Virus record (IMG/VR): IMGVR_UViG_3300028603_000032
Span: 1-64,000 of that record
Strand: one strand, 5' to 3'
From: a virus
Taxonomy: Duplodnaviria > Caudoviricetes
DNA length: 64,000 bases
The translations under genes and the position numbers were made by a program. Below are positions 1 to 20,969 of this stretch, piece by piece. The first letter of the stretch is position 1. Each line of letters begins with the position of its first letter. The notes beneath the pieces are model-generated. The model ran no database searches. It was given only the letters and a program-made list of their open reading frames with translations, and was not told the origin of the DNA.

Positions 1-2772
1 ACGTCGGGCGTCACACTCTCTGCGTCGGCGGACAGCGTGACGGGAGCGAACCGGGTCGCAATCAACACGTCGGCGGACGGCACGTTTTACAGCGCCGGGA
101 GTGATTTCACGGTGATGCTGACGGCCGGCACCGTGGATGGGACCTCGGTTGTCGGCTATGTGGTGGGCCGGTTCACGCTAAGAGAAAGCGCGGCTTATGA
201 TGCTGTGTCGGCGGGTGTTGGACTTGCTGACGGCGCGATTACTGCCGCGAAGATCGCCAGCAATGCCATCACCGACGCCAAGATTTCTTCTGGTGCCCTG
301 ACGGCTCCCAAGTTCGCAGCCGGTGCCTTCGATGCGGTGTGGAGCGTGACAACACGTGTTCTAACGGCCGGCACCAACATCGTGCTTTCCAAAGGCACAG
401 GAGTAACCGGGTTCAACGACCTCGACGCTGCAGGTGTGAGAACCGCAGTCGGTCTTTCATCGGCTAATCTCGATACTCAGTTTGCAGCACGGGATACGGG
501 AGCTGTTGCGACGGCGGTGTGGGGTTCCGCAACGCGCACCGTCACCAACGTTTCCGGGTTCTCCGACACAGGCGTTAATGATCGTCTCGGGCGTATTCTT
601 GCCGACACCGATACCGGCCTCAAAGACGAGATCGCGACCCTGGATACGGGGCTTCGCGCGCTGATCACCGCTTCGGCTGGTGGTGATGCACCTGATACCG
701 GCGCGATCGCTGGTGCCGTGTGGGGCTTCTCAACGCGTGTCCTGACTGCCGGCACGAATATTTCACTGGCCAAGGGAACGGGCGTCACCGGGTTCAATGA
801 TCTCGATGCGGGCGGTATTCGCACTGCGGTCGGTCTTTCGTCGGCAAATCTCGACACGCAACTCGCTGCGCGTGATACCGGCGCTATGGCCGCAGCGGTT
901 TGGGGCTTCAGCACGCGCGTTTTGACTGCTGGCACAAACATCTCCCTAGCAAAGGGATCGGGTGTCACAGGTTTCAACGACCTGAGCCAGGCGGATGTCC
1001 GGACGGCGGTCGGTCTGGTATCAGCCAATCTCGATACGCAACTCGCATCTCGTGACACCGGAGCCGTTGCCTCTGCCGTGTGGGGGTTCAGCTCGCGCGC
1101 CCTGACGGCCTTCAACCACGATACCGGCGTATCCTCGACGGTGTGGAACGCGACGAGCCGGACGGTCACGAACGTGACGGGCTTCAGCGATACCGGCGTG
1201 AATGATCGGCTGTCGAAGATCGGTGGAGATGCCGATACCGGCTTGCGGGATGCGATATCGGATGCGCGCTATGTCGACACCGGGCCTACGGCTGATCTGG
1301 CCGTCCTGCGCGCCGGGGTCAACGTCGCCTCCATCCGCAGCGACACGGGGGCTGCGAGCCGGTTGCAAAAGCTTTCCGGCAATCAGCTCAAAGAGGACGG
1401 AACATTCGACACTGGCACGGGCCAGGCCACGAACACGTTCAACGTTCAGGCGAACGTCACGCTCGATACCGGCACGCCGATCAACGTTCAGGTCGACATC
1501 CCGGCCATCGTCTCCGGTGTGTGGGGCGCTGGTAGTAGGACACTGACCGATATCGATACGGGTGTGATAACCAGCGGGGTATGGTCGGCCAGCGCGCGCA
1601 CGCTGACCAACTATCACGACACCGGCATCGACCAAAGCCTTGCCTTGCTGCAGGCTGGCGTGCATGTCTCATCGTTCACGGATACCGGGGTCTACGACCA
1701 TCTGACGGAGATTGCTGGGAATACCTCATCGAGCGCCGTGGGCAATGCGGTCTGGACCTCGGCAAGCCGCACGCTCACGGATTTCGAGGACACGGGTACG
1801 CTCGATGTTCTCGCCAAGATCCTCGGCGATGCTGACACTGGTTTGCGGGCTGCTATCGCCGCGATCCCCGCAGCAGACACCGGAGCCATTGCTGATGCTG
1901 TGTGGGCGAAGGATACGCGCTCGCTGACTAATTATCACGACACCGGCATCGATCAGGATGTCGCTCGGGTCGCAGCACGCGTAGCGGAAGCCGACACCGG
2001 ATTGCGTTCTGCGATCAACGGCATTCAGGTAGGGGTCGACACAGGCGCTGTTGCGGACGCCGTGTGGAATGCCCAAAAGTCTGCTCATATCGATACCGGA
2101 ACCTTCGGCGAGCACCTTGGCGGTGAGATGGCAGCGTCTTCATCCGTCGACACCGGGGCGATAGCCAATGCGGTTTGGGGTAAGGATGCCCGCACGCTCA
2201 CGGATTACCACGACACAGGGATCAACCAACGCCTCGACGTGATCCGGGGTGATGTGGACACCGGACTGAGGGCAGCGATCTCGGCTGCGACTTACGTGGA
2301 CACCGGCCCGACAGCCGATCTTGCAGTGCTCAGGGCTGGCGTGAACGTGTCGGCATTTTCGGATACAGGGGTCAACAATCGGCTCGCCCGCATTCAGGCG
2401 GAGACGGACACTGGCCTCCGGTCTGCTATACAGGCGGCAGTGTATAGCGACACCGGCCCGACGGCGGATCTTGCTCAGATCATTGCCGACACGACGACAC
2501 TCAAGGCAGGCGTGAACGTCACCAGCTTTGCCGATACTGGTGTCAATAATCGGTTGTCCCGTATCCAGGCCGAGGCCGATACTGGCATCCGCTCGCACAT
2601 CACGGCAGCCGTTCCGAGCGCCAGCATTGCGGCGATCAAGACCCAGACCGACAAGCTGACCTTCGACACGGGCGGCGAGGTGCTGGCGGACATCCGCAAG
2701 GTCAATAACGTCACCGTTGCTGGCACGGGTGATACCGGGCTCGGCGATACCTGGCGGCCGGCAGCAGAATGA
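1..2772 (+). CDS. Repeat-rich virion fibre/spike-like structural protein with ~35 DTG motifs (5' end outside window)
   Basis: Frame is open from base 1. Ala/Thr/Gly/Asp-rich, with three 60-aa repeats (337-516, 718-897, 898-1077) and recurring AVW-x3-R-T-L-T units typical of phage fibre shafts. DTG recurs every ~15-30 aa through most of the protein. Confidence 0.7.
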   Translation, partial: TSGVTLSASADSVTGANRVAINTSADGTFYSAGSDFTVMLTAGTVDGTSVVGYVVGRFTLRESAAYDAVSAGVGLADGAITAAKIASNAITDAKISSGALTAPKFAAGAFDAVWSVTTRVLTAGTNIVLSKGTGVTGFNDLDAAGVRTAVGLSSANLDTQFAARDTGAVATAVWGSATRTVTNVSGFSDTGVNDRLGRILADTDTGLKDEIATLDTGLRALITASAGGDAPDTGAIAGAVWGFSTRVLTAGTNISLAKGTGVTGFNDLDAGGIRTAVGLSSANLDTQLAARDTGAMAAAVWGFSTRVLTAGTNISLAKGSGVTGFNDLSQADVRTAVGLVSANLDTQLASRDTGAVASAVWGFSSRALTAFNHDTGVSSTVWNATSRTVTNVTGFSDTGVNDRLSKIGGDADTGLRDAISDARYVDTGPTADLAVLRAGVNVASIRSDTGAASRLQKLSGNQLKEDGTFDTGTGQATNTFNVQANVTLDTGTPINVQVDIPAIVSGVWGAGSRTLTDIDTGVITSGVWSASARTLTNYHDTGIDQSLALLQAGVHVSSFTDTGVYDHLTEIAGNTSSSAVGNAVWTSASRTLTDFEDTGTLDVLAKILGDADTGLRAAIAAIPAADTGAIADAVWAKDTRSLTNYHDTGIDQDVARVAARVAEADTGLRSAINGIQVGVDTGAVADAVWNAQKSAHIDTGTFGEHLGGEMAASSSVDTGAIANAVWGKDARTLTDYHDTGINQRLDVIRGDVDTGLRAAISAATYVDTGPTADLAVLRAGVNVSAFSDTGVNNRLARIQAETDTGLRSAIQAAVYSDTGPTADLAQIIADTTTLKAGVNVTSFADTGVNNRLSRIQAEADTGIRSHITAAVPSASIAAIKTQTDKLTFDTGGEVLADIRKVNNVTVAGTGDTGLGDTWRPAAE

Positions 2773-2996
2773 CGACGATCACCAAGCGCATCAGCGGGGC
2801 CATTGCTTCGCTGGGCGCTAAAAGAGTCCTAACGCGGGATGCTACGCCAGACATCCCGCCCGTGTTTTCCAACGAGAGTTGGGGCGGTGCGTGGGGCAGG
2901 GCGTGGGGCAGGTCGTGGTTCTTCGCTTCGCCGCTGATCCCCGGCTTGGACCAAAAGCCGTCGGCCAACATCACCAAGCGCGTCGATCTCGACTGA
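2769..2996 (+). CDS. Small hypothetical protein with WGGAWGRAWGRSW repeat
   Basis: ATGA overlap with upstream fibre gene; Trp-Gly repeats. Confidence 0.55.
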   Translation: MTTITKRISGAIASLGAKRVLTRDATPDIPPVFSNESWGGAWGRAWGRSWFFASPLIPGLDQKPSANITKRVDLD

Positions 2997-3042: not shown

Positions 3043-3348
3043 ATGGCAATCAGCATTGGCCCTGGTGGCTATCTCGACGTGCAGTCCTCAGAGGTCGGCG
3101 CCGAGCGCAACGTCAAGCTGCTCAGCTTCCGTGGCCGCTCCGACACCGGCTTCATTCCGCAGGCGCAGCTTCGCGCTGGCGAGCCTCCCGTTGCCTACGT
3201 GAACGTTAACACTGGCGCTCTGGTGCCGGCGGGCACGTTCGGCGGTGTTGTCACTGGCGGACTTTCTCAGGTTGACACGGGCATCGGCGATCTGTCCGGC
3301 TCCGTGTTCTTCGCCGTCGTCACCGATACCGGCTCACCGGGGCTCTGA
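3043..3348 (+). CDS. Small DTG-bearing putative virion protein (3 DTG in 101 aa)
   Basis: RBS AAAGGAA upstream; Gly/Val-rich; RSDTG, VDTG, TDTG. Confidence 0.65.
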   Translation: MAISIGPGGYLDVQSSEVGAERNVKLLSFRGRSDTGFIPQAQLRAGEPPVAYVNVNTGALVPAGTFGGVVTGGLSQVDTGIGDLSGSVFFAVVTDTGSPGL

Positions 3349-3354
3349 TCCATC

Positions 3355-4023
3355 ATGCTCGACACGATAGAGGGACACGTCGAGGCGGGTGGTGAGGTTG
3401 CGGCTCCGGCAATCGTGCGTAGTCGCTTGCGTGGAATTGCGGTGCTGGGCAGCCATCCCCAGACCAAGCGCCTTGCTCCCTACCATGACGACGGGTTCTT
3501 GATTTACGCCTGCTCCCCGGACAACTCACCCTACGGGTTCAGCCCGGATGCATGCGCGCCGCCGCGTGTGGACCAGTTTTTTGAAATTCACCGGCCCGTG
3601 TTCGATAGGTCCCGCCCCTACGAGTACCTCGACTGGCTGCGCAACATCCCGGTCGTCTGGATGCGCGATCCGGTGGCGATCCGGTTTCGTGCGGAGAATG
3701 GCGAGCCTCTGTTCCCGACCGCCCGTCTTTATCCCGAGAAGGAAATGAAGGCACGGTTCGGAGCGTTCACCTTTACGAGCTCCATCGCCTTCATCATGGC
3801 AAAAGCCATCGTGGACATCGAGAAGATGATGGATGAGGGCCGCATGGGCGGGAGTGAGCCGCCGATGCTGGGCCTGTGGGGCATCCTGCAAAGCTCCAAG
3901 GTCGAGTACGAGAAGCAGCGCCAGGGCACGCAGAACATGATCTGGCAGGCGACGCAAAGCGGGATCAAGGTTCTTGCAGCTCAGGAAAGCCGTCTGTTCG
4001 ATCCGCCGCCCGAGGATTTCTAA
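3355..4023 (+). CDS. Phage protein tentatively GT29/Maf-like (sialyltransferase-type Rossmann fold) glycosyltransferase
   Basis: N-terminal IAVLGSHP..AP..D motif, DQFFEIH, FTSSIAFIMAKAI, LGLWGI..EYEKQR. I recognise these from phage proteins near GT clusters; the fold assignment is inference. Confidence 0.45.
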   Translation: MLDTIEGHVEAGGEVAAPAIVRSRLRGIAVLGSHPQTKRLAPYHDDGFLIYACSPDNSPYGFSPDACAPPRVDQFFEIHRPVFDRSRPYEYLDWLRNIPVVWMRDPVAIRFRAENGEPLFPTARLYPEKEMKARFGAFTFTSSIAFIMAKAIVDIEKMMDEGRMGGSEPPMLGLWGILQSSKVEYEKQRQGTQNMIWQATQSGIKVLAAQESRLFDPPPEDF

Positions 4024-4026
4024 CCA

Positions 4027-4359
4027 ATGACAAAATCTCCATCATGGATGGCGCGTGTAATTCTCGCCGTGTGCCCCGACATTGAGCACGCACGCAGTTA
4101 TCCAGGCTACGTTCAAATAAGGCATGGATTTGCAACGAGTAATTTTCCCAAGAGAGGGCTGGCGAGTTGCCTACGCGAATTGGGGCGAAACCGCCGGTGG
4201 GTTCGCAGGAGGAACCGAATTTATCTCGCTCTTGCATTTCTCGGCGTGCCGATCGAGCGCAGGATGAAAATTGCCAATAACGTCGCCCGTTCCGTGTTGG
4301 GCGATTGTCCGCCGTATCCAGAGAGCCGTGCGGAGTTCCGTGGGGCAGGTGATTTCTGA
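4027..4359 (+). CDS. Hypothetical protein
   Basis: ATG 4 nt after upstream stop fills the gap; no recognisable motif. Confidence 0.3.
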   Translation: MTKSPSWMARVILAVCPDIEHARSYPGYVQIRHGFATSNFPKRGLASCLRELGRNRRWVRRRNRIYLALAFLGVPIERRMKIANNVARSVLGDCPPYPESRAEFRGAGDF

Positions 4360-4427
4360 GTGGACAACGCTGCAATTCAGTATAGCGGGTCGATTCTTGT
4401 CGGGCCGAATTTGGTATATTCGTCATC

Positions 4428-5171
4428 ATGATTACCGTCGCTTCATTCCTCTGGTTCGATGGCGCCCGCCAGCGCTCCTACCAGTTCTCCGCCGATGATA
4501 TCCGCATCTGGAAGAGCATGGTGAGCCGCGACCTCACCGTTCCGCACCGGATCGTCTGTGTGACCCACCGGCCCGATCTGGTGGAAGACTTCATCGAGAC
4601 GATTCCGCTCGACACGGCAAAGCATGTGCCGGGAACCTGCTGCGTGAAGCTCCAGGCCCACAAGCCGGGCGGTGTCGCCAAGGAAGGCGAGCGCGTATTG
4701 CTGATGGACATCGACTGTGTGGTGACGGGGAACCTCGATCCGCTGGTGACGATGGATGAGCCGTATCGGTTCTGGCACAATCCGAATTTCGAGCGCGGCG
4801 GGCGGCGCGGTTTCATCCAAGGCTCGCTGCAACTCTTCACGGTCGGTGCCACGGAATGCTTGTGGCGCGATTTCGACCCGCGCACGACTCCGGGATGGTA
4901 CAATCGCCGCTTCGGAGGCGCCGAGCAGGCTTGGATCTCCGAGCGCCTGAACACCGCCTATCCGGATGCAGGATGGGAATGGAACGTGCCGACGTTCACG
5001 GATGCTGATGGCATCTACGGCGCTGGTCGGCTCGTCAACGGCAAGATGGGCAACGGAGTTCAATCGGAGTTGCCGGAGAATGCGCGGATCGTGTTCTTTC
5101 CGGGAGATCGCGCGGCAACGCAGCCGCAGGTTCAGGCGGTGCATCCGTGGATCGCAAGCCATCTCTACTGA
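4428..5171 (+). CDS. GT-A fold glycosyltransferase (GT8-like, DxD)
   Basis: MVSRDLTVPHRIVCVT, KLQAH, RVLLMDIDCVVTGNLDPL (DxD), C-terminal ARIVFFPG. No TM segment. Confidence 0.8.
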   Translation: MITVASFLWFDGARQRSYQFSADDIRIWKSMVSRDLTVPHRIVCVTHRPDLVEDFIETIPLDTAKHVPGTCCVKLQAHKPGGVAKEGERVLLMDIDCVVTGNLDPLVTMDEPYRFWHNPNFERGGRRGFIQGSLQLFTVGATECLWRDFDPRTTPGWYNRRFGGAEQAWISERLNTAYPDAGWEWNVPTFTDADGIYGAGRLVNGKMGNGVQSELPENARIVFFPGDRAATQPQVQAVHPWIASHLY

Positions 5172-5178
5172 GGGACAA

Positions 5179-5352
5179 ATGACAGAGCCGACTTTCTTCG
5201 ACAGCTTTAGCGATCTCGAGAAACGGTATCTTTGGGATCTCCTTGCAACTGGCCTTTATGGGGAGACACTTGAGGATGTCATGCGGGAGCTAATCCGCGG
5301 AGGTTTGCGGCGGGCTGCTGAGAAGAAACTTGTCTCGCTTAATCGGGAGTGA
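5179..5352 (+). CDS. Small hypothetical protein
   Basis: RBS GAGGGA, ATG at 5179, 57 aa. Confidence 0.45.
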   Translation: MTEPTFFDSFSDLEKRYLWDLLATGLYGETLEDVMRELIRGGLRRAAEKKLVSLNRE

Positions 5353-5356
5353 TCCT

Positions 5357-5953
5357 GTGACCGATTCCATGATGGAATACCTGCCCCCGGCTGGCAGTGG
5401 CCCACTGAAATACACCGGACAGGTTGCCTCCGGTTACGACGCCAAGCGCGAGCAATCGCCCAAGTGGACCTGCGAGCAGCGCATCATCGAGTCATGGATC
5501 GACGACATGCCGGAAGGCTCCGTGATCCTCGATGCTCCCTGTGGGACAGGGCGGTTCTTCTCGGCCTACGAGCGCAACAAGCATCTCGTTCTCGGGCTCG
5601 ACATTTCTCCGGACATGATTGCGCAGGCACGAGTGAAGATCACCCAGCCGAACCTGTTCAAGTTCGGGATCGGAGACGTGCGCTCCGTGCCTTTGGAGAA
5701 CAAGCAGGTCGACGCTACTATAAATGTGAGAATCACTAGGTGGTTATCACCAAGCGATTGCGTCCGAATGATGAAAGAGATGCAACGCGTATCAAAGGAT
5801 AGAATTATAATAACCGCCCGCGTGGCTAACCATCTGCACGCCAGAACAGTAGAGCTCTTTCAGTCCGCCTTGGAAGAAGACTGGTCCATCGTTCGCAATG
5901 AAGTAGGGTACGTCATGGATTATCGCGTGTTGATGTTCCAGAGGAAGAAATGA
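5357..5953 (+). CDS. Class I SAM-dependent methyltransferase (Methyltransf_11/25-like)
   Basis: ILDAPCGTG motif I, GLDIS motif II, GDV; GTG start 5357 with GGGAG RBS. Confidence 0.85.
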   Translation: MTDSMMEYLPPAGSGPLKYTGQVASGYDAKREQSPKWTCEQRIIESWIDDMPEGSVILDAPCGTGRFFSAYERNKHLVLGLDISPDMIAQARVKITQPNLFKFGIGDVRSVPLENKQVDATINVRITRWLSPSDCVRMMKEMQRVSKDRIIITARVANHLHARTVELFQSALEEDWSIVRNEVGYVMDYRVLMFQRKK

Positions 5954-6600
5954 TAGGAACTCGCTTCACTAGGTGGGTAGTCATCGCTGAGGCCGCTAGG
6001 TACGTTGCGCCTAACGGCAGGAAGAACCGCGCTTGGCTATGCAGGTGCGATTGCGGTGTCGAGCGCGTTGTTACGCAAATGAGGCTTCGCAGTGGGGACT
6101 CTAAGAGCTGTGGGTGCTTAAAGGCGGAAAAGCTGGCGTACATCAGGAGAACCCATGGTCACTTTTCTGGCCGCAAAGTGACGCCAACTCTCAATTCGTG
6201 GCGTTCGATGATGCTGAGATGCAACCCATCTTATCGCTTATATAAGGACTATGGCGGGCGCGGTATAAAAATTTGCGAACGGTGGCATAAGTTTGAGAAC
6301 TTTCTAGAGGATATGGGAGAGCGTCCTCCTGGGACGACACTCGAACGGATCGACGTCAATGGATATTACGAACCCGGCAACTGCCGATGGGCTACACGAT
6401 TAGAGCAGGGAAACAACAAGAGGAATAACAGGTTCATCGACTGCTTTGGTAAGCGGGTGACGCTCGCGGAAGCAGAGAGAATCACCGGGGTGCCGCAACA
6501 TACAATTGCCGCGAGGATAAAGCGGGGATGGAGTGTTTGTGATGCTCTGACAAAGCCCCCCCGAGTGTTGCGTCGCGCAAAACGGGCAATTGCCACATGA
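5950..6600 (+). CDS. HNH-type homing endonuclease
   Basis: WLCRCDCG..SKSCGC N-terminus; YGGRGIKICERW..FENFLEDMG.RP..TLERIDVNGYYEPGNCRWAT. Confidence 0.85.
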   Translation: MIGTRFTRWVVIAEAARYVAPNGRKNRAWLCRCDCGVERVVTQMRLRSGDSKSCGCLKAEKLAYIRRTHGHFSGRKVTPTLNSWRSMMLRCNPSYRLYKDYGGRGIKICERWHKFENFLEDMGERPPGTTLERIDVNGYYEPGNCRWATRLEQGNNKRNNRFIDCFGKRVTLAEAERITGVPQHTIAARIKRGWSVCDALTKPPRVLRRAKRAIAT

Positions 6601-6863
6601 GCCTGACCGTCTGCACCTACTTCTGGTTCGATCCCAACAGCAAGCACAACCTGAACTACGTCTCCCCGCCCGACAACGTGCGCATGATGCAGGAAATGCA
6701 GCGCGTTGCGTGCAAGGGGATTATCTGGACGGCACGCGTTTCTGATCATCCGCATGCTAGAACGCGTGAGTTGTTCGAATCCGCCCTCGATGGCTGGAAG
6801 ATCACGCGGGATGAAGCCGGGTATACGATGGCATATCGCATAATGATGGCGGAGCCCGTCTGA
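6597..6863 (+). pseudogene. Chimeric remnant: GT N-terminus fused to methyltransferase C-terminus
   Basis: MSLTVCTYFWFD resembles the GT starts (MTLSVCAYFWHD, MITVASFLWFD). SPPDNVRMMQEMQRV...ARVSDHPHARTRELFESAL..W.I.R.EAGY.M.YR aligns with the C-terminus of 5357-5953. Confidence 0.65.
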
Positions 6864-7348
6864 TGCAGCGCCACATCAAACGCTGGGATGTCCTGCTGGA
6901 GCTCGTTCGCCAGAACGGCTGGCGCAAAGGTGCCGAGATCGGCGTCCTCAACGGGGCGACGTTCTTCCATCTGCTCGACAACGTGCCCGGCCTGGAGATG
7001 ACCGCCGTCGACAAGTGGGCGGCGGACAACCCGATCTACGGGGACATGCGGCCAATCGGTGAAGAGTTCAGGCTTCGGGCCAGAGCCTTCGGGGATCGCG
7101 TTACGATTCTGCAGGGCAATTCGGGCGACATGGCGCATGATGTAAAGGACGGCTCGCTTGATTTCTGTTTCATCGACGCGGATCACTCGACGGAAGCGGC
7201 GCGGGCGGACATCGCGGCCTGGGCGCCGAAGGTTCGTAAGGGCGGCGCGATCCTCGGTCACGACATCGACTTCCCGAGCGTCGAAGCAGCGGTGAAGGAG
7301 TTCGGCAACTACCAAGTTCTTCCGGATGATGTGTGGGTGCTTCTATGA
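6863..7348 (+). CDS. Class I SAM-dependent methyltransferase (Methyltransf_24-like, sugar O-methyltransferase type)
   Basis: GAEIGVLNG, FCFIDADHS, KVRKGGAILGHD. Confidence 0.85.
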   Translation: MQRHIKRWDVLLELVRQNGWRKGAEIGVLNGATFFHLLDNVPGLEMTAVDKWAADNPIYGDMRPIGEEFRLRARAFGDRVTILQGNSGDMAHDVKDGSLDFCFIDADHSTEAARADIAAWAPKVRKGGAILGHDIDFPSVEAAVKEFGNYQVLPDDVWVLL

Positions 7349-8052
7349 CCCTGAGCGTCTGCGCCTACTTCTGGCACGATGACCGGAGCAAGAACAGGTA
7401 CGCGACCGACGACGTTCGCCTGCTGCAAAGGATGGTGAACCGGCATCTGACCGTGCCGCACGAGTTCGTGGTCATCACGGATCGTCCGGAGTTGTTCAGA
7501 GACGATAGCGAGATCCGGGCGGTTCCGATCGATTGGACCACGCATATTCCGGGCCGGTGCTTCGTCAAGCTGATGACGTTCGGCCCGCACATGAAGGCCG
7601 TCGGCGAGCGTGTTCTCGTCATGGACCTCGACGTGATCGTGACCGGCAACATGGACGCCATCGTCGATCGGTACGAGCCGATTGTCCTGTGGCGCAACCC
7701 GACACGAGTTCCATGGGATAACCCGTCGAAGCCGAGCCGCCCATATTACAACACGAGCATCGTTCTTCATCGCACGGGGACATTGACTGACCTGTGGATG
7801 CGTTTCAATCCGAAGCGCCCGATCGTTCGCGATGACCAGTGGTGGGTCTCGGGATTGCTCGGGCCGAACGTGCCCTATTGGGATGCAAGCCACGGGATTT
7901 ACCGGATTGCCCGAGAGGATACACCGGGAAGCGGAGTGCAGGGAACGTTGCCTGAGAATGCACGCATCGTCTTCTTTCCGGGCAGCGAAGGCAAGGCCAC
8001 GGACCCGCGCGTCATTGCGGCCAATCCGTGGATCGAGGGACATTGGAAGTAA
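7345..8052 (+). CDS. GT-A fold glycosyltransferase, paralog of 4428-5171
   Basis: RHLTVPHEFVVITD, VKLMTF, RVLVMDLDVIVTGNMD (DxD), LPENARIVFFPG shared with paralog. Confidence 0.8.
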   Translation: MTLSVCAYFWHDDRSKNRYATDDVRLLQRMVNRHLTVPHEFVVITDRPELFRDDSEIRAVPIDWTTHIPGRCFVKLMTFGPHMKAVGERVLVMDLDVIVTGNMDAIVDRYEPIVLWRNPTRVPWDNPSKPSRPYYNTSIVLHRTGTLTDLWMRFNPKRPIVRDDQWWVSGLLGPNVPYWDASHGIYRIAREDTPGSGVQGTLPENARIVFFPGSEGKATDPRVIAANPWIEGHWK

Positions 8053-9963: not shown

Positions 9964-10056
9964 ATGCCCGTAGACGCCCCCATGAAAACCTATGTCGGCT
10001 CAAGCAAGAAGCCGAAGCCCAAGCCCAAGCCGACAAAGCCGCGGCCGGGATATTGA
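9964..10056 (+). CDS. 30-aa Lys/Pro-rich micro-ORF (…SSKKPKPKPKPTKPRPGY)
   Basis: RBS GAGGGAAG; not in ORF track (<60 aa); directly precedes terminase. Confidence 0.45.
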   Translation: MPVDAPMKTYVGSSKKPKPKPKPTKPRPGY

Positions 10057-10066
10057 TCAGATCTGC

Positions 10067-11869: not shown

Positions 11870-13540
11870 ATGGACAGCAGAGCGCGAGAAGTGCTGCGGA
11901 TGGGCGACAAGCTCTTCAGCAGTAGAAGAAACATAGACTCTCTCTGGCAGGAGATCGCGCTCAACTTTTATCCTGAGAAAGCCGATTTCACATACAACAG
12001 GGTAGAGGGCGATGAGTTTGCCGACCACCTGTTCTCGTCCTATCCCGTCATGGCGCGGCGCGAGCTGGGAAACCTGCTCTCCGCAAACCTTCGGCCACGA
12101 TCGCAGAAATGGTTCTCGGTTCACGTCGATGACGAGGAACTTGACGAGCAGGACGCCGAGCGCAAGTTCCTGGAGAGGCTGACGGACATTCAGTGGCGGG
12201 CGACCTACGACCGTCCGGCACAGTTCGTCAGGGCGACGAAGGAGGGCGATCACTTCTTTGCCACCTTCGGCAATGCGGTCATCCAAGTCTCTCTCAACAT
12301 CGCGGGCGACGGCCTCCTGTTCCGCAGCCATCACTTGCGAGATTGTGCCTGGTCGGAGAATGCAGAAGGTAAGATCGACGTTCTCCACCGCAACTGGAAG
12401 CCGACGGCGCGCCAGCTCAAGCACCATTTCCCCGCCACGATCTCGAAAGATGTGAAGGAAGCCTGCGAGAAGAACGCGGAGCAGACCTTCTACTGCCGCC
12501 ATGTCGTGGTGCCGTCGCGGCTCTACGATTACAAGTCCAAGTCCGGCCGGCAATTCCCCTACGTTTCGCTCTATGTGGAGCGGGAAACCGAGACGGTGCT
12601 GGAGGAGGTTGGTCTTAATCACTTCCCCTACGTCGTGCCCCGCTGGGAAACCGTGCCTGGCTCGGCCTACGGCGTGTCCATGGCAACCATGATCCTGCTG
12701 CCCGACAGCCGGACGTTGCAGGTCGTGATGCGGACGCTGAGAGAGGCAGGCGAGAACTACGTCAATCCCCCGCTCATCGCCGTGAACGATGCGATCCGGA
12801 GCGACATCGCGCTCTATCCCGGCGGCATCACCACCGTTGACATGGAATACGACGAGCGGCTGGGCGAGGTTCTAAGGCCGATCACGAAGGACCGCGGCGG
12901 GTTTCCCATAGGCGAAGCCATCGCGGCATCGCTGCGTGAGGACATCAGGGGCGGGTTCTTTCTCGACAAGATCCAGCTTCCAGAGGTCGGCAACCAGATG
13001 ACGGCTTTCGAGGTTCGCCGTCGTCTCGAAGAGCATATCCGGTCGTCGTCTCCGATCTTCGAGCCGGTCATCGAGCAGTACAACGACCCGCTCTGCGATA
13101 CGGTGTTCCAGATACTCTCAGAAGCCGGGGCGTTCCCGCTGCATGAAATGCCGGAGACTTTGGCCGAACGGGAGATCAAGTTCAAGTTCCGCTCACCCCT
13201 GGCAGACCTTGCCGATCAGGCCGAAGCGGAATCGTACATCGAGACGCGCGACCGCATCCTCGTGCCGGCCATGCAGTTCGATCCATCACAGGCTGAGAAC
13301 GCGGACTTCACCCAAGCAACACGTGACGCCATGCGGGCGGCCGGCTGGAAAGCGAAGTGGTTCAAGCCGGAAGAAGCCGTTGCGGAAGCCAAGGCGCAGA
13401 TGCAGGAGCAGGCCGAAGCACAGCAGGTCGTGGACGAGATCGCACAGGCCGGAGCGGTTGCGGAGCAGGGCGGCAAGGGCCTCGATGCGCTGCTCAAGGC
13501 AGGCCAGCAGCCGGCACGTCCTAACGGCGCCGCAAGGTAG
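11870..13540 (+). CDS. Portal / head-tail connector (T7-like)
   Basis: 556 aa; PYVVPRWETVPGSAYG, PPL, MTAFEVRRRLEE motifs; position after terL. Confidence 0.88.
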   Translation: MDSRAREVLRMGDKLFSSRRNIDSLWQEIALNFYPEKADFTYNRVEGDEFADHLFSSYPVMARRELGNLLSANLRPRSQKWFSVHVDDEELDEQDAERKFLERLTDIQWRATYDRPAQFVRATKEGDHFFATFGNAVIQVSLNIAGDGLLFRSHHLRDCAWSENAEGKIDVLHRNWKPTARQLKHHFPATISKDVKEACEKNAEQTFYCRHVVVPSRLYDYKSKSGRQFPYVSLYVERETETVLEEVGLNHFPYVVPRWETVPGSAYGVSMATMILLPDSRTLQVVMRTLREAGENYVNPPLIAVNDAIRSDIALYPGGITTVDMEYDERLGEVLRPITKDRGGFPIGEAIAASLREDIRGGFFLDKIQLPEVGNQMTAFEVRRRLEEHIRSSSPIFEPVIEQYNDPLCDTVFQILSEAGAFPLHEMPETLAEREIKFKFRSPLADLADQAEAESYIETRDRILVPAMQFDPSQAENADFTQATRDAMRAAGWKAKWFKPEEAVAEAKAQMQEQAEAQQVVDEIAQAGAVAEQGGKGLDALLKAGQQPARPNGAAR

Positions 13541-13879: not shown

Positions 13880-14932
13880 ATGCTTGACGACGAACTCACA
13901 GAAACCCAGGAGACTGGGGAAAGTGGCGATCCGGCACCAAAGGATCAGCAAACACAAAGCTCGGAAGGTGAGCCTAAAGCACCTGCCACCGAAGAGAAAA
14001 CGGAACCCGCAAAGACCGGCAAGACGATAGTTGCCGGAGCCGATGCCGAGGAAGAAGCCAAGGCAAAGGAAGAGCAGGAAGCCAAGGATCACAAGCCCTA
14101 TTGGCCAGACGACTGGCGCGAGAAGATGGCCGAGCACTATGCGGCCGGCGACAAGAAGCTCTATCAGAAGGAGCTGAACCGCCTGAAACGGTTCACCGAC
14201 CCGACCGCAGTCTACGGCATGGGGCGTGAGCTGGAGGGCAAGTTCACGTCAGGCGGTCTCGTCAAGATCCCCGGCAAGGACGCGAAGCCGGAGGAGAAAC
14301 AAGCCTTCTGGAAACAGCTCGGCGTTCCCGAGAACGCGGAAGAGTATTTCGAGAAGATCCAGCTTGAGAACGGCGCTGTCATCGGCGAGGCCGACAAGCC
14401 GCTGGTGAACACGTTCGCGCAGGCCGTTCACAAGGCCGGAGCCACGCCTGAGTTCGTCAGCGCAGCCCTCAACTGGTACTATCAGCAGCAGGAGCAGCAG
14501 GCCGCCGAGCTAGATGAGCAGGACGAGACATTCCGCGTCGAATCCGAGCGCGCGCTGAAGGAAGAATTCGGCCCGGCGTTCAAGCGGCGCACGAATGCCA
14601 TCGGTTCACTATTCTCTACGGCTCCGGGCGGCTCGGACATCAAGAACGAGAACGGCCTGTTTGCCCGCCTCATGGGCGGCAGGACGGCCGATGGCAGGAT
14701 CATCGGCAACGACCCCGACATGGTGCGCTGGCTGTCCGGCCTCGTGAGCGAGGTTAACCCGGCGGCTACCGTTGTCGAGGGCGGCGATCAGTCAGGGCAA
14801 TCCGTCGACGAAGAGATCGCCAAAATCGAAAAGATCATGCGTACAGACCGGCGCGAATACAACCGGACCTACGCAGACCGTTATCGCGAGCTTCTCGGAG
14901 TTCGCGAAAAGCTTCGGGCTCGCGGAGCCTGA
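13880..14932 (+). CDS. Capsid scaffolding protein
   Basis: Acidic disordered N-terminus, PGKDAKPEEKQAFWKQLGVP, helical C-terminus; upstream of MCP. Confidence 0.75.
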   Translation: MLDDELTETQETGESGDPAPKDQQTQSSEGEPKAPATEEKTEPAKTGKTIVAGADAEEEAKAKEEQEAKDHKPYWPDDWREKMAEHYAAGDKKLYQKELNRLKRFTDPTAVYGMGRELEGKFTSGGLVKIPGKDAKPEEKQAFWKQLGVPENAEEYFEKIQLENGAVIGEADKPLVNTFAQAVHKAGATPEFVSAALNWYYQQQEQQAAELDEQDETFRVESERALKEEFGPAFKRRTNAIGSLFSTAPGGSDIKNENGLFARLMGGRTADGRIIGNDPDMVRWLSGLVSEVNPAATVVEGGDQSGQSVDEEIAKIEKIMRTDRREYNRTYADRYRELLGVREKLRARGA

Positions 14933-15137
14933 AAACCCCGGCGGCCAGATCCGGCCAACCCGGAGCAATCCGGCGCTGGATAGGCAGCCACCTTAAACCC
15001 CAAACCGTCTAGCAGGCGCTCTTGGACTTGAGCGCGGCGCTCGATCTTCCCGATCGGGCCAACCCGCAATCACGTCGGAAAGGGCTAACCCGGACGCAAC
15101 GACGGCATCTCAAACCCACCTATTGAGAGGTGCCAAA
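14933..15137 (+). promoter_or_regulatory. Structured 5' leader of major capsid gene
   Basis: Three GGCYAACCCG copies, several hairpins, and a stem (GGCATCTCAA/TTGAGAGGTGCC) covering the RBS. Confidence 0.4.
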
Positions 15138-15971
15138 ATGAGCGACAGTGCGTTTCAAACCCAATACCGCCAGGAGCTTGTGGCGGAGTTCGAGGAAGGT
15201 ATGAGTTGGCTTCGTCAGTGCACCGTCACGGAAGCCGTCATCAAGGGCAACCAGGCGGTGTTCCTGGTGGCCGGTTCCGGCGGCGCTGCTGCCGTAAACC
15301 GCGGTATCAACGGGTTGATCCCGGCTCGCGCCGATAGCAACACGCAGCATACCGCAACGCTGGTTGAGTGGCATGATCTTTGCCGCAAAACCCGCTTCAA
15401 CATCTTTGCATCTCAGGGCGACCAGCGGAACCTTATGCAGCAGACCACGCGCAAGGTTCTGAACCGCCGCGTCGATGCTGACGTTATCGCTCAGCTCGAC
15501 ACTGCGACCAACAACCTTGGCGCTGCCACCACGTTCTCGCTGTCGGTCGCGGCCAAGGCGGTCACGACCCTTGGCGAGAACGAGGTTCCGGTCGAGGAAG
15601 AGGACAAGATGTACGCCGTCGCCACCCCCGCGGTGCGTGGCTACATCATGCAGCTCCCCGAGGCGACGAAGATCGACTACGTGGAGATGAAGTTCCTCGC
15701 AGGTCCGGCCCGCCGCATGATGCGCTGGGCGGGCTTCAACTGGGTCTTCCACCCGAACCTGACCGGCGTCGGGACCAACTCGGAGAAGTGCTACTTCTTC
15801 CATCGCGATGCGATCGGAAGTGCCTTCGATTCCGGTGAGGGCCTGAACACGGCGGTGGGCTACGATGACGAGCAGGACTACTCCTACGCTCGCGCATCGT
15901 CGTTCACGGGCGCGAAGCTCCTGCAGCAGAACGGCATCGTGCAGTTCCTGCATGACGCCTCGGCCATCTGA
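15138..15971 (+). CDS. Major capsid protein
   Basis: AFQTQYRQELVAEFEEG..LRQCTV start, FHRDAIGSA, position after scaffold; GAGAGG RBS. Confidence 0.85.
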   Translation: MSDSAFQTQYRQELVAEFEEGMSWLRQCTVTEAVIKGNQAVFLVAGSGGAAAVNRGINGLIPARADSNTQHTATLVEWHDLCRKTRFNIFASQGDQRNLMQQTTRKVLNRRVDADVIAQLDTATNNLGAATTFSLSVAAKAVTTLGENEVPVEEEDKMYAVATPAVRGYIMQLPEATKIDYVEMKFLAGPARRMMRWAGFNWVFHPNLTGVGTNSEKCYFFHRDAIGSAFDSGEGLNTAVGYDDEQDYSYARASSFTGAKLLQQNGIVQFLHDASAI

Positions 15972-15988: not shown

Positions 15989-16255
15989 ATGGCTTACAAG
16001 TCTGACAAGCTGAACCTCCAGTCTCAGTCGATCGCGGGTGTCCGGCACTGGTCCTATACGGACACGGGCTCGGCACTTGCTGCCGTGTCTGACGCCGGCT
16101 TCTTCTCCGATGGTCGCACCAAGGGGATGAAGGTGGGCGATGTCGTGTTCTTCACGAGCGCCGGCGCCACCCCCACGTCTGACACCTTCGTCGTCACTGA
16201 CGTGCAGGCCGACGATACCGGCGGCCAGTACGCCTCTGTCGGCGATACGGGCTGA
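15989..16255 (+). CDS. Probable capsid decoration/cement protein (3 DTG, ends in DTG)
   Basis: Strong RBS AGGAGG; immediately after MCP and before the terminator; 88 aa. Confidence 0.7.
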   Translation: MAYKSDKLNLQSQSIAGVRHWSYTDTGSALAAVSDAGFFSDGRTKGMKVGDVVFFTSAGATPTSDTFVVTDVQADDTGGQYASVGDTG

Positions 16256-17043: not shown

Positions 17044-17685
17044 ATGGTTTCCAAGCTGGAGATCTTCAACGCGGCTCTCGACGAGCTAGGCCACGAGATC
17101 CTGAGCGATACCGGCGAAGGCAACAGGGCGGCGCAGGTTCTGGCGAGGCTCTATGACAAGGTGGTCGCGGACTGCCTTGCGGAAGGTTCGTGGAACTTTG
17201 CCATGGAGACCATCAAGGCGGAATCGGACACGGGCGTCGAGCCAGCGTTCGGCTTCAGGCAAGTGTTCGCCAAGCCGTCGGATTGGGTCAGGACGTTCGC
17301 AGTTTCAGAGGACGAGTATTTCACTTATCCGCTCCTGCACTACTACGACGATGCCAACTACTGGTCGGCGGACAATTCCCCGATCTATATCCGGTACGTG
17401 AGCAACGATACCGGGCTTGGATTGGAGATGAGCCGCTGGCCGGCGGCGTTCCGGCGCTTTGTGGAACTGGAGCTCGCCGCCCGCGCCTGCATGCCAATAA
17501 CGCAGAACGCATCCTTGAGAGAGGATGTGGAGGCGGCACGCGACAAGGCACGGAAGAACGCGAAGTCACACGATGCGATGAACGAGCCGCAGCCCCGCTT
17601 CCCGCCTCCATCACCGTGGACGCAGGCGAGGGCCGGCAGGATGGCGCGCGGTGATCGCGGCAGTCGTGGCAGATTGATCGGGTAG
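17044..17685 (+). CDS. Tail tubular protein A (adaptor, T7 gp11-like); 3 DTG
   Basis: MVSKLEIFNAALDELG, WNFA, FVELELAARAC; synteny. Confidence 0.8.
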   Translation: MVSKLEIFNAALDELGHEILSDTGEGNRAAQVLARLYDKVVADCLAEGSWNFAMETIKAESDTGVEPAFGFRQVFAKPSDWVRTFAVSEDEYFTYPLLHYYDDANYWSADNSPIYIRYVSNDTGLGLEMSRWPAAFRRFVELELAARACMPITQNASLREDVEAARDKARKNAKSHDAMNEPQPRFPPPSPWTQARAGRMARGDRGSRGRLIG

Positions 17686-17690: not shown

Positions 17691-20600
17691 GTGGCAAGAA
17701 CCAATGTCCCGCTACTTGCTCTGAATCGCGGCCTTGTATCCCCCAAGGCTCTCGCACGCGTTGATCTTGACCGCACCCGCCTTTCTGCCGAGGTGCAGAC
17801 CAACTGGCTTTCGAACACCCAAGGCGCACTGTCCCTCCGCCCCGGTACGAAATACATGGGGTCGGTGGCTTGCGATACCGGAGCGGAGCTGATCGAATTC
17901 GTAGCGTCAACAGACGATGTGGCTCTGCTTGAACTCACCCATGATACCGGCTCCGGTCAAGGAAGAATGCGCGTGTGGCTGGGGGATGACGCGCATAACC
18001 TGCAACTCATGAAGCGGCCTCACGTCGATACACATGTGAGCCTGTCGGATACCGGATGGGAGGATGCTAGTCTGGGTGGCTCCATCACCGTAAGTGGTTT
18101 TGATCTAATCCCCACGATGGTCGATCAGACAACTTCTGGGGTTAGCATGACGGCATCATCCACTGTGGATGATGAATCAAGCGCGTGGTCTGCTGGAGAT
18201 GATGATGTCGACTCGTTGTGGGTATCAGATGATGACCCTCCCCAATGGCTGAAAGTCGATCTAGGTAGCGCACAACAGGTTTCGAGGTATTCGATAAGAG
18301 CTGTATCAATCCCCGAAGGCATCGGAGCAACGCCGTCTGCCTGGACCTTTCAGGGGAACCATTCGGATACGGGATCTGCAGGAAGTTGGACCACACTTGA
18401 CACGGTGTCTGGTCAGTCGTCCTGGGCGGTAGGCCAGAAGCGCACGTTTAACATAGGTTCTCCACAGCAGTTCCGTTTCTACCGCTGGAATATAACGGCC
18501 AATGCTGGTGGGTATCCAGTGGTCGCCATTGCTGAGGTCGAGTTGATAGGTCAGGCAAGTGGCTCGTCTGACCAAGGCACGTTCAACCATGGTAATTTGA
18601 TTTTGAATGCAGTGGCTCTTGGGTCGGTTGCTCGGGTCAGGAAACGCGTCATCGTTGACACTGGCGATCTCGGATCAGAACACCAATTGTCGATTGATGT
18701 CTCGCACGGCCCCGTCACATTCAGGATCGGCTCATCTGCCGGTGATGATGATTACGTGTCGGAAGCGATGCTCGCCACAGGGCACCATTACCTCGCCTTC
18801 ACGCCCACAAATGATTTCCATATTACCATTCAGAACGACAAAATTGTTAACCGTATCATTGATGGCATCAGTATAGCCGACAGCGGGGTAACGGCTATAC
18901 CAACACCATGGTCCGCAGATGATCTCGATGACATCCGCTACGACCAGTCTGCCGATGTCGTCTATGTCGATTGCAGAGGTGTCAAGCCGCACAAGATCGA
19001 GCGCCGCGGAGTTGGCAGGTCATGGTCTGTCGTGGAGTATGACCCGAATGATGGTCCATTACTGACCGCACCATCGTCCTCTGCGAAGCTAAAACCCAAC
19101 GGTTATTACGGCAATATCAAGATCCTGTCGGATGTCCCGTTCTTCCAGTCTGGTCATGTCGGAGCTCTCATCCGAATGTTCCATTCCGGCCAAAGTGGAG
19201 TATGGCCGCTCGGAAACCTCGACACGACGACAGATCCGATCGAGGTAACGGGGATCGGCGACACCGGAACGGACAACGATATCGACAACGAGCGCCGCAT
19301 CATTTTCGATGTGTCCGGGAGCTGGTCGGGCGAGATCACCATCGAGAGATCATTCGATGGCCCCGAGTTCGGATTTCGACCGATTGTTCCGAACCTCGGC
19401 ACGCCGATCGATACGGGCACGTTCACGACCACAATAGACGACCCAGATGACAATATCAGTGCATGGTATCGCGCGAAGATTACTTCTTATACCTCGGGCG
19501 TTGCTGTGGTCCGCGTCAGCTACAAGGGCGGCGGTACGACGGGGATTGCTAGGATCACGGGCTACAATTCTAACCAGGAGGTCGATGCCGAGGTTCTCTC
19601 CCGTTTCTCCGATACCGGCCCGACGGACAACTGGCAGGAAGGATGGTGGTCGGATCGCAGGGGTTATCCGACGGCAGTTTCCCTGCATGGCGGCAGACTT
19701 TGGCATGCCGGCGGGGCTACCGTGTTCGGCTCGGTTTCCGACGATTACGAAAGCTTCGACGAGTCGGTCGAAGGTGATGCCGGACCTATCGTCAAGACGC
19801 TCGGCTCAGGTCCCGTCGACAGCGTGCATTACATCGTCTCCTTGCTTCGTCTGATCATCGGCACGGCAGGGGCGGAAATCGCCGTTCGCTCGTCCTCTCT
19901 TGATGAGCCACTGACGCCGACCAACTCCAACGCGATCGCCTTCTCGACGCAAGGCTCCGCCCCGCTCCGCGGCCTCAAGATGGACACCCGGTGCATCATG
20001 GTGCAGCGATCCAGGCAACGCGTGTTCATGCTGGGAGCCGGAGTGCAGGGCGCATCGTTCGGGGACTACGAAGGGCTTGAGCTTACGCTGCTAGTTCCTG
20101 ATCTCCTGAACGCCAGGGTCAAGTCCGTCGCGATCCAGAGACAGCCTGATACCAGAATTCACTTCGCCCTTGAGGACGGCAAGGTTGCAATCCTCACCTA
20201 CGAGCCGACCGAGGAGGTGATCTGCTGGTATCTGTGGGAGACGGACGGAACAGTCGAGCGCGTAGCAGTGCTTCCGGGTATCGAGGAGGACGCGGTATTC
20301 TATCTCATCCGCCGCGAGATCAACGGCCAGACGAAACGCTTCATTGAGAAGTGGGCCAAGGAATCGGAGTGTGTCGGGGATACTGGCCTGACTTGGCTCA
20401 TGGACGCGGCCGTTTCGTACACCGACACCGGCCGCACCAACGTGATCTCAGGGCTGGATCACCTCGTCGGTGAAGAGGTCATCGTCTGGAGCGACGATAC
20501 GGGCAGCATTCCCGGTGTCGACAGATCTCCTGATATCGACGGCTTGCAGCGCACCTATACTGTGGACACGGGCGGTAGCATTACGCTCGACGCAGACGTG

Positions 20601-20969
20601 CATCATGCGGTCGTGGGACTGCCTTACAGTGCCACGTGGAAGAGCACCAAGCTGGCCTACGCGGCCCAAGCCGGGACCGCCCTCAATCAGGCGAAGCGCG
20701 TCCCGCAGATGGGCATGATACTCCACCAGACCCACGCGCGGGCTCTCCAGTACGGCAGCGATACGGGCGGGCCGCTCGACTCATTGCCGAAGATGTATCG
20801 TGGCAAGGCGCTCGATCCGGATCATATCTTCCGCTCCTACGACGAGGTAGCCATCAGCTTTCCGAGCGGATGGGACACGGATGCTCGTGTCGTGATCAAG
20901 GCCAAGGCACCACGTCCCGCCACCATAATGGCCCTCGTGCCGAGTATTCAAACTAATGAAAGGGTGTGA
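17691..20969 (+). CDS. Tail tubular protein B (nozzle, T7 gp12/P22 gp10-like) with inserted F5/8-type C (discoidin) domain; 13 DTG
   Basis: LNRGLVSP..LARVDL, GALSLRPGT N-terminus; GYPTAVSLHGGRLW; discoidin QWLKVDLGS..VSRYSI...WTTLD...FRFYRWNIT...AEVEL (~18200-18550). Confidence 0.82.
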   Translation: MARTNVPLLALNRGLVSPKALARVDLDRTRLSAEVQTNWLSNTQGALSLRPGTKYMGSVACDTGAELIEFVASTDDVALLELTHDTGSGQGRMRVWLGDDAHNLQLMKRPHVDTHVSLSDTGWEDASLGGSITVSGFDLIPTMVDQTTSGVSMTASSTVDDESSAWSAGDDDVDSLWVSDDDPPQWLKVDLGSAQQVSRYSIRAVSIPEGIGATPSAWTFQGNHSDTGSAGSWTTLDTVSGQSSWAVGQKRTFNIGSPQQFRFYRWNITANAGGYPVVAIAEVELIGQASGSSDQGTFNHGNLILNAVALGSVARVRKRVIVDTGDLGSEHQLSIDVSHGPVTFRIGSSAGDDDYVSEAMLATGHHYLAFTPTNDFHITIQNDKIVNRIIDGISIADSGVTAIPTPWSADDLDDIRYDQSADVVYVDCRGVKPHKIERRGVGRSWSVVEYDPNDGPLLTAPSSSAKLKPNGYYGNIKILSDVPFFQSGHVGALIRMFHSGQSGVWPLGNLDTTTDPIEVTGIGDTGTDNDIDNERRIIFDVSGSWSGEITIERSFDGPEFGFRPIVPNLGTPIDTGTFTTTIDDPDDNISAWYRAKITSYTSGVAVVRVSYKGGGTTGIARITGYNSNQEVDAEVLSRFSDTGPTDNWQEGWWSDRRGYPTAVSLHGGRLWHAGGATVFGSVSDDYESFDESVEGDAGPIVKTLGSGPVDSVHYIVSLLRLIIGTAGAEIAVRSSSLDEPLTPTNSNAIAFSTQGSAPLRGLKMDTRCIMVQRSRQRVFMLGAGVQGASFGDYEGLELTLLVPDLLNARVKSVAIQRQPDTRIHFALEDGKVAILTYEPTEEVICWYLWETDGTVERVAVLPGIEEDAVFYLIRREINGQTKRFIEKWAKESECVGDTGLTWLMDAAVSYTDTGRTNVISGLDHLVGEEVIVWSDDTGSIPGVDRSPDIDGLQRTYTVDTGGSITLDADVHHAVVGLPYSATWKSTKLAYAAQAGTALNQAKRVPQMGMILHQTHARALQYGSDTGGPLDSLPKMYRGKALDPDHIFRSYDEVAISFPSGWDTDARVVIKAKAPRPATIMALVPSIQTNERV

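Follow-up and report, generated by a model that had tools for sequence, protein, structure and literature searches.

The sequence analysed here (the window) comprises 64,000 nucleotides, the first 64 kb of the 79,784-bp virus contig IMGVR_UViG_3300028603_000032, whose ends overlap by 127 bp and so give a circular genome of ~79.66 kb (about 79,657 bp). By gene content this is a podovirus-type phage, with matches to the PHROG families of the major head protein (phrog_3437) and of tail tubular proteins A (phrog_394) and B (phrog_376). Two of its features are the subject of this report: the tripeptide Asp-Thr-Gly (DTG), which recurs in six unrelated proteins, and a cassette of predicted glycosyltransferase (GT)-like, methyltransferase and kinase genes that lies between terS and terL and retains a core set across the clade of phages sharing the tripeptide. 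Along the circular map, terS (genome 76950-77615) is followed by a 105-residue DTG protein, a 234-residue open reading frame (ORF), a fibre-like gene, p75, a 101-residue DTG protein, the enzymes of the cassette and terL.

Five of the DTG-bearing genes lie in the window, all on the plus strand. The fibre-like ORF (1-2772) has 35 copies and is part of a 968-residue ORF that starts at genome position 79523 and crosses the circular junction. It has no match in Pfam, PHROG or PDB searches, and no DTG occurs within the first ~165 residues of its window part. A 60-residue tandem repeat (a 180-bp unit in 2.3 copies) spans 693-1110, but repeat inflation accounts for the DTG abundance only in part: it explains a few of the fibre sites, and the sites in tail tubular protein B stand in non-repetitive contexts. 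At the same position, relatives carry unrelated fibre-like ORFs with 10-41 DTG. The 101-residue protein (3043-3348; three DTG) is encoded directly upstream of the enzymes and has a homologue of 72% identity (blastp) in the relative L113, where the 101-residue ORF at 4493-4798 also has three DTG. Further downstream are an 88-residue post-capsid protein (15989-16255; phrog_18004), possibly a head decoration protein, with three DTG of which the last is at its extreme C-terminus; tail tubular protein A (17044-17685; phrog_394, E-value (E) 3.6e-41), with three; and tail tubular protein B, or nozzle (17691-20969; phrog_376, E 6.3e-135), with 13. The sixth gene lies beyond the window, just after terS (genome 77612-77929), and encodes the 105-residue protein, with four.

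Together the six proteins contain 61 DTG where 2.28 are expected from composition (27-fold; Poisson P 1.3e-63), and DTG is by far their most over-represented tripeptide. With the fibre left out there are 26 against 1.04 expected (P 2.5e-27); in tail tube B alone there are 13 against 0.76, and 20,000 shuffles of that protein peaked at 7. The top tripeptide of a control phage, S20, reached a P of only ~4e-6. In 19 non-target proteins, which offer 8,729 tripeptide positions, DTG is absent, and so it is specifically from TerL, the portal, scaffold and major capsid proteins, and the 820-, 3391- and 443-residue proteins encoded downstream of the tail genes. All synonymous codons for Asp, Thr and Gly are in use at DTG sites, and the matching DNA pattern, GAYACNGG, is found 72 times on the plus strand against 12 on the minus strand, where chance would give an estimated ~13 per strand. 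Hence selection acts at the level of the peptide, since every codon is used and only the coding strand is enriched; a DNA-level motif or an artefact of composition was ruled out on the same grounds, and by the persistence of the tripeptide in a relative with 43% guanine-plus-cytosine (GC) content. The D-T/S-G signature of aspartic proteases was also rejected, there being 35 copies in the fibre, loop sites in the tail proteins and no protease fold. A first-pass annotation of the window, made from the letters alone, had counted DTG by hand in the five genes of the window (35, 3, 3, 3 and 13) and had reported none in the terminase, portal, scaffold, capsid and ejected proteins; the program count matches it exactly on both points. 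Its description of these five proteins as unrelated families, its argument from varied codons to protein-level selection, and the outcome it foresaw for a tripeptide enrichment test likewise stand.

In an AlphaFold2 model of tail tube B (mean predicted local distance difference test score (pLDDT) 84.9), 11 of the 13 DTG threonines are in coil, compared with 46% coil overall (P 0.005). The loops that hold it are 2-21 residues long, and DTG often starts right past the end of a strand.

Relatives were taken from 79 IMG/VR loci found by a capsid-based scan, which fall cleanly into a DTG-rich clade, with capsid identity of at least 70%, and a sister clade, with capsid identity of 43-59%. Tail tube B contains 12-22 DTG in the rich clade, whereas in the sister clade it contains 0-2; pooled, the 22 rich-clade sequences have 243 where 13.4 are expected, and the 38 from the sister clade have 11 where 17.9 are expected. 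Tail tube A has 2-3 DTG in the rich clade and none in the sister clade, except for one sequence with a single copy (63 versus 1 when pooled), while the post-capsid protein has 2-4 and none respectively (70 versus 0). The three sites of tail tube A occupy fixed alignment columns in 17-23 relatives and correspond to variable residues in the sister clade; the three positions of the post-capsid protein are similarly kept throughout the rich clade, the sister clade reading TDA or ADG, for example. In tail tube B the sites of the rich clade comprise 13 core, 5 intermediate and 15 lineage-specific groups. At the core columns sister-clade sequences show gaps or varying residues rich in G, S, N and D, and many sites fall in insertions or variable columns relative to it. 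Within the rich clade DTG residues are 83% conserved, compared with 53% for the rest of the protein. Non-core DTG average 4.5 per protein where 0.86 are expected, an excess which indicates that sites are still being gained in sublineages.

The tripeptide is strict. The 81 DTG-rich ORFs of the clade contain 618 DTG, 44 DSG, 7 ETG, 3 NTG and 6 DTA. At ~7% of sites, and at homologous positions, DSG is the only recurrent stand-in at conserved DTG columns; the earlier remark that Ser almost never replaces Thr was therefore too strong, and a recurrent serine is what a functional hydroxyl would lead one to expect. No extended motif was found around DTG in these ORFs beyond mild biases (Lys is missing at -1, and both Arg and Lys are nearly absent at +3). 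The tag is held in relatives from 43% GC (L107, with 24 DTG in 566 residues and 6 in 133) to 68% GC.

Elsewhere in the same proteomes DTG appears to be avoided. The major capsid, portal, TerL and scaffold proteins of the rich clade and two small proteins contain none in 34,201 residues, against 9.6 expected, while their sister-clade counterparts contain 27 in 58,070 residues; at one conserved capsid column, NLG in the rich clade stands opposite DTG in the sister clade. This pattern is suggestive of avoidance in the non-target proteins, in a comparison of related sequences that carries no formal test. As regards the capsid itself, 13 of 22 rich-clade capsids have a DSG at one alignment column, and the capsid of the window has one DSG; this column may be the sole tagged site on the capsid shell. 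A separate observation concerns locus L014 (IMGVR_UViG_3300037482_000014, 7.6 kb), which is mosaic: the capsid shows 82% identity and the post-capsid protein contains three DTG, while neither tail tube A (44% identity) nor a fragment of tail tube B has any, and both resemble the tail module of the DTG-poor clade. This contig stops short of the cassette region.

The cluster of GT-like enzymes, methyltransferases and a P-loop kinase that the first-pass annotation had placed at 3355-9533 is confirmed by profile and structure searches, and all of its genes are on the plus strand. The first conserved enzyme, c222 (3355-4023; no DTG), is predicted to have a sialyltransferase/MptE-like fold. Its AlphaFold2 model (pLDDT 90.6) finds the family GT42 sialyltransferases CstII and Cst-I as top Foldseek matches (E 2e-4, probability 1.00, template-modelling (TM) score 0.45), and in VIA structure comparisons the same enzymes score Z 9.1 over 159-162 aligned residues (root-mean-square deviation 3.8-3.9, identity 12-16%), with GT29 enzymes at Z 6.5-7.6. 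An Atlas lead to PF01973 (Maf/MptE-like) at 0.83 comes from a family assigned to 16% of the cluster's members. No Pfam hidden Markov model matches c222, PF01973 included, and a PDB profile search returned nothing specific. At least 365 metagenomic homologues were found, part of the hundreds found for cassette proteins; when one genome of each prokaryote species was scanned, a single weak match came up, and neither a host nor a cultured lysogen was identified in this way.

Two paralogous GT-A-like genes are present, c247 (4428-5171; phrog_1962 glycosyltransferase, E 7.8e-10) and c239 (7333-8052; phrog_1962, E 4.5e-9), which share a DxD motif; in c247 its residues D94 and D96 are invariant in seven aligned sequences, and the DxD region weakly matches the Skp1 alpha-galactosyltransferase in the PDB (E 0.67). 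Neither protein has a Pfam match even at E 5, nor an NCBIfam match. The number of copies varies from one to three among relatives. The family has 2,466 representatives and no Pfam model, and some members are fused to Nucleotid_trans, Methyltransf_24, TupA ATP-grasp or cupin domains. A class I S-adenosylmethionine methyltransferase, c207 (5330-5953; Methyltransf_25, E 7.8e-15, and Methyltransf_11), occurs in all cassette-bearing relatives, and its NCBIfam matches, all under cut-off, are exclusively to small-molecule or O-methyltransferase-type models. The putative kinase, c225K (8462-9139), is the best conserved cassette protein, with a mean column identity of 71% across phages of 43-64% GC and an invariant Walker A motif (G-P-P-G-C-G-K-S-T). 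It matches AAA_18 and AAA_33 weakly (AAA_18 at E 3.7e-4, below cut-off), its Atlas neighbours by feature and structure are AAA_33 and AAA_18 kinases (TM 0.74-0.77 to AAA_33 clusters), in keeping with an NMP-kinase-like fold, and a PDB profile search gave no specific relative. The last gene before terL, c187 (8970-9533, true start probably near 9136), encodes a conserved protein of ~140 residues (136-143 in homologues) in which the motifs G-x-H-R and W-A-P-x-W are invariant; Pfam and PDB searches with it gave no match.

The remaining genes of the cassette are accessory. They comprise a 110-residue ORF (4027-4359) not found in relatives; a second methyltransferase (6863-7348; Methyltransf_24, PF13578, E 4.7e-18) that may serve tailoring and has no homologue in the five relative genomes G001-G005; and a partly conserved 144-residue ORF (8028-8462), missing between the second GT and the kinase in L105. 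Relatives variously have further genes for a flavin adenine dinucleotide (FAD) oxidoreductase, a short-chain dehydrogenase or a Methyltransf_21 protein. An HNH homing endonuclease gene (5950-6600; phrog_374, E 2.9e-59) is mobile and absent from G002, and downstream of it an 88-residue ORF (6597-6863) duplicates the C-terminus of the methyltransferase, with 60% identity to c207 residues 138-202 and 53% to the C-terminus of the intact G003 enzyme. This duplicate is apparently the footprint of invasion by the endonuclease; the G003 cassette holds several HNH copies. No cassette protein has a transmembrane segment, which fits action on virion proteins in the cytoplasm, and domain scans of the cassette revealed no lipid-carrier transferase or flippase.

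Cassette and tag are inherited together. The core enzymes occur in the whole contigs G001-G003 and in L105, L107, L108 and L113-L122, and are lacking in G004 and G005, contigs of the sister clade. Of the loci that extend upstream of terL, eight of eight from the rich clade have cassette genes and none of 17 from the sister clade do, and c187 is upstream of terL in all eight DTG-rich loci. The prediction that homologues from phages without the cassette would lack DTG is thus borne out by tail tubes A and B and the post-capsid protein of the sister clade, all of them DTG-poor. DTG-rich fibre genes adjoin the cassette in relatives. The terL genes of the rich clade form two types, with 76-90% or 44-52% identity to that of the window (L008, L009, L013, L018 and L023 as against L002, L006 and L027), and in their non-structural halves the genomes have nothing in common, yet cassette and structural module stay linked. 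Recombination breakpoints therefore appear to flank the terminase gene.

Outside the clade, the only cultured phages found to have cassette homologues are Tetraselmis viridis viruses S20/SI1, EBPR siphovirus 3 (a GT of ~30% identity) and Microcystis phage Mvi-Yong1342-1. S20 (L109, NC_020840.1), of siphovirus type, has two genes annotated as alpha-2,3-sialyltransferases, two GTs and one methyltransferase at 26950-32533, within its head-tail module, and one of these GTs is 30% identical to c247. Neither S20 nor the Microcystis phage has an excess of DTG. Two isolated cases bear on the age of c222: in Mvi-Yong1342-1 a c222-like gene (24% identity) sits just before terS, and the sister-clade locus L064 (capsid 49% identical), alone among the DTG-poor loci, shows a weak c222-like match (29%) upstream of terL. 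A sialyltransferase-fold gene at the terminase position may predate the DTG system.

The strict tripeptide, the interchange of Thr and Ser, the loop setting, the spread over six unrelated exterior proteins, the absence from interior and non-virion proteins, the continuing gain of sites and the co-inheritance with the cassette together point to a signal in the peptide that an enzyme of the phage reads. The most economical chemistry would be O-glycosylation, in view of the one to three genes of GT-A-like type, the gene for a sialyltransferase-fold protein and the accessories of the sugar-tailoring type. Hence the interpretation that we modestly favour is that DTG, with DSG as a minor form, tags threonines of exterior virion proteins for cytoplasmic O-glycosylation. 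More tentatively, and as a proposal that falls a little short of an even chance, DTG may be a strict three-residue code by which a self-contained, soluble phage cassette recognizes and O-glycosylates proteins of the virion exterior; the sialyltransferase-fold enzyme would perhaps add a sugar of nonulosonic-acid or Kdo type, as the first or at a later step, which would then be methylated or phosphorylated. On the favoured interpretation the soluble enzymes would act in the host cytoplasm, where one transferase, either a DxD GT-A enzyme or c222, would read DTG on surface loops of tail tubes A and B, the 88-residue post-capsid protein, the fibre and the two small proteins, and add the first sugar. 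The other transferases would extend the glycan, from one to three being available depending on the relative; the methyltransferase or methyltransferases, joined in some relatives by the FAD oxidoreductase and short-chain dehydrogenase, would tailor it; and the P-loop kinase would phosphorylate it or make a precursor. The outcome would be a phage-specified glycan coat over tail, fibres and head decoration. Of the first-pass proposal that the cluster decorates DTG threonines, the part open to computation has gained support, while the modification itself is inferred, and the sugar, the initiating enzyme and the use of a coat as shield or receptor modulator are conjectural.

Several points weigh against this interpretation. 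The link between tag and cassette amounts to one evolutionary event in one clade and could be a coincidence of descent, and S20, which has a related cluster of GT, 'sialyltransferase' and methyltransferase genes, has no enriched tripeptide tag. The major capsid protein, the largest exposed surface, lacks DTG, which is odd for a shield, and the loop placement derives from the secondary structure of the model. The fold match of c222 is moderate, with thiamine and HPPK pyrophosphokinases of the same fold in a near-tie at Z 8.5-8.7, and the GT-A assignment consists of a PHROG match at E ~1e-9 over the N-terminal 80-100 residues together with the DxD motif, the solved GT matching at only E 0.67. 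Furthermore, no nucleotide-sugar synthesis genes are recognizable among the phage ORFs scanned.

That the association is one clade deep also leaves room for DTG to be an unmodified element, for instance a turn, a site that binds metal or ligand or a docking point for fibres, which merely shares ancestry with a cassette acting on the host envelope (altering lipopolysaccharide or a receptor for superinfection exclusion, for example) or on phage DNA. A tripeptide that often begins right past a beta-strand could be a favoured turn. The same loops in the sister clade vary widely, however, so that no tripeptide is structurally required there; the surrounding loops range from 2 to 21 residues and therefore form no single structural motif; and the sites extend over six unrelated folds and to the extreme C-terminus of an 88-residue protein. 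The depletion of DTG in the non-target proteins of the same clade suggests instead that something in the cell reads it. Also in favour of this alternative, the phage is probably temperate, and sets of phage GTs, kinases and methyltransferases are known from DNA hypermodification (PMC13326640, 10.1101/2023.12.21.572611). Against this, apart from an ordinary N6/N4 DNA methylase, no dNMP hydroxymethylase, TET-type/5mYOX or base-modifying domain appeared in 30 further ORFs searched by Pfam and 30 by PHROGs, a survey that covered the small ORFs in part; the methyltransferases are of small-molecule or O-methyltransferase type; and the cassette keeps its place beside the structural genes even as the type of terL, the replication module and the GC content change. 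We regard an unmodified DTG as unlikely, though an alternative of some weight.

Modification by something other than a sugar is a further alternative. The P-loop kinase might phosphorylate the threonine, either as the end product or as a phospho-linked handle, in which case the transferases would add onto the phosphate or act elsewhere. The kinase is indeed the best conserved protein of the cassette (71% column identity), as would fit the reader of an invariant peptide; the acidic residue at -1 and the small residue at +1 could plausibly be kinase determinants; and interchange of T and S fits phosphorylation as well as it does glycosylation. Its nearest neighbours, on the other hand, are AAA_33 and AAA_18 small-molecule and nucleotide kinases, with no known protein kinase among them, and one to three GT-like genes, the sialyltransferase-fold gene and a methyltransferase are always present, all of which pure phosphorylation would render superfluous. 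A primary group other than sugar thus seems to us distinctly unlikely. Very improbable, in our estimation, is a scheme in which DTG is read by a host enzyme, such as a cytoplasmic glycosyltransferase of the flagellin or adhesin type, and the phage cassette only supplies or tailors the donor. Many alphaproteobacteria glycosylate their flagellins, and a homologue of the cell-cycle regulator GcrA in the phage hints at hosts of that class; moreover, c222 resembles transferases dependent on cytidine monophosphate (CMP)-sugars, and with no donor genes in the phage the host must supply nucleotide sugars. The tag is nevertheless identical across phages of 43-68% GC, whose hosts probably differ, so that the constant partner is the phage cassette, and the scan for c222 in one genome per prokaryote species yielded its single weak match.

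If DTG is indeed a sequon for O-glycosylation by the cassette, the system would most likely be a form of virus-encoded virion glycosylation already known in principle, and distinct in sequon, targets and enzymes. Mycobacteriophage virions are reportedly glycosylated by phage-encoded glycosyltransferases (the work of Freeman et al. 2023 in Cell Host Microbe), with the glycans said to lie on Ser/Thr-rich C-terminal stretches of capsid and tail-tube subunits and to follow no defined short sequon. In that system, as here, phage GT genes lie near structural genes (here two GT-A-like genes and the sialyltransferase-fold gene, between the fibre genes and terL). It reportedly makes O-linked glycans on capsid and tail proteins in the cytoplasm, and cytoplasmic O-linkage is likewise what is proposed for the present phage. 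The differences are a strict tripeptide that recurs in loops across six unrelated proteins, the lack of a tag on the major capsid protein, other enzymes and hosts that are probably Gram-negative. The Bacteroidetes sequon D-(S/T)-(A/I/L/V/M/T), which the first-pass annotation had given as D-(S/T)-X in support of its proposal, resembles DTG in having three residues with Asp followed by Ser or Thr. DTG is nonetheless not that sequon, because the Bacteroidetes third residue needs a methyl group, whereas here 618 sites have Gly and six read DTA, and because that system is periplasmic, its glycan being built on a lipid carrier and moved to exported proteins outside the cytoplasm, in contrast to the virion targets and soluble enzymes found here.

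Enzymes of the Maf type O-glycosylate Ser and Thr of a surface filament protein in the cytoplasm, and flagellin glycosylation is not known to follow a strict sequon. The c222 model fits best on CstII and Cst-I, and on GT29 enzymes too, at an identity of only 12-16%. HMW1C/NGT is a soluble cytoplasmic GT41 enzyme that N-links sugars at N-X-S/T, at many sites on an adhesin before its export. It is thus, as proposed here, a soluble transferase of the cytoplasm that reads a three-residue sequon on a surface protein; unlike the system proposed here, it is N-linking, of family GT41 and bacterial rather than viral. In chlorovirus PBCV-1 the glycosylation sites of the capsid protein are non-canonical. 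As reviewed in two articles, virus-encoded cytoplasmic enzymes glycosylate this virus's own capsid protein (PMC9614988, PMC7019647). PBCV-1 differs from the present phage in being a eukaryotic giant virus with N-linked glycans on its major capsid protein, unrelated enzymes and no DTG. Our search of the literature on phage and virion O-glycosylation met with no account of a DTG tag, nor of phage virion glycosylation at a defined sequon.

Were the proposal correct, bacteriophages would have a first case of virion glycosylation directed by a sequon, and phages of probably Gram-negative hosts would cover their tails and fibres in glycans of their own making, at positions specified in the genome. 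This would bear on receptor binding, on resistance to proteases and host defences, on environmental stability and on immune recognition of therapeutic phages. The apparent avoidance of DTG would be a rare case of proteome-wide counter-selection by a virus's own modifying enzyme. For site-specific glycoengineering, tag and writer would make a compact, portable cytoplasmic pair, and as a true sequon DTG would offer an unusually clean system, with a writer cassette of ~6 kb and substrates as small as 88 residues with three sites.

The surrounding genes are those of a DNA phage with its packaging, head and ejection functions on the plus strand. The cassette is followed by terL (9992-11644), portal (11870-13540), scaffold-like (13880-14932) and major capsid (15123-15971) genes, and the tail genes by those of internal or ejected proteins of 129, 189, 820, 3391 and 443 residues (21636-36721), all DTG-free; the 820-residue protein bears a lysozyme domain and the 443-residue protein is a peptidoglycan hydrolase. 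The largest, a polyvalent ejected protein (25190-35365, +), has LPD38, ART-PolyVal, GNAT-like and phosphoribosyltransferase-like regions, and its counterparts in relatives have 4325-4977 residues. Directly after tail tube B, a reverse-strand ORF (20970-21560, -) with HNH_3 and helix-turn-helix domains is probably a further homing endonuclease, and just past the lysis and ejection genes lies an ISL3-family transposase (38503-39921, -; DDE_Tnp_ISL3, E 8e-49).

An integrase gene (48491-49729) and a helix-turn-helix repressor-like gene suggest that the phage is probably temperate; an ordinary N6/N4 DNA methylase gene is found at 50593-51447. The GcrA homologue (61691-62248, +; E 4e-27), present also in relative L105 (1-315), together with a GC content of 59%, makes a host among the Bacteroidota improbable. 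GenBank phages include no near relative, the best match to tail tube B being 28% identical. DNA of the same phage is present, with no RNA run among those listed, in metagenome runs from landfill (the probable source), bioreactor and wastewater.

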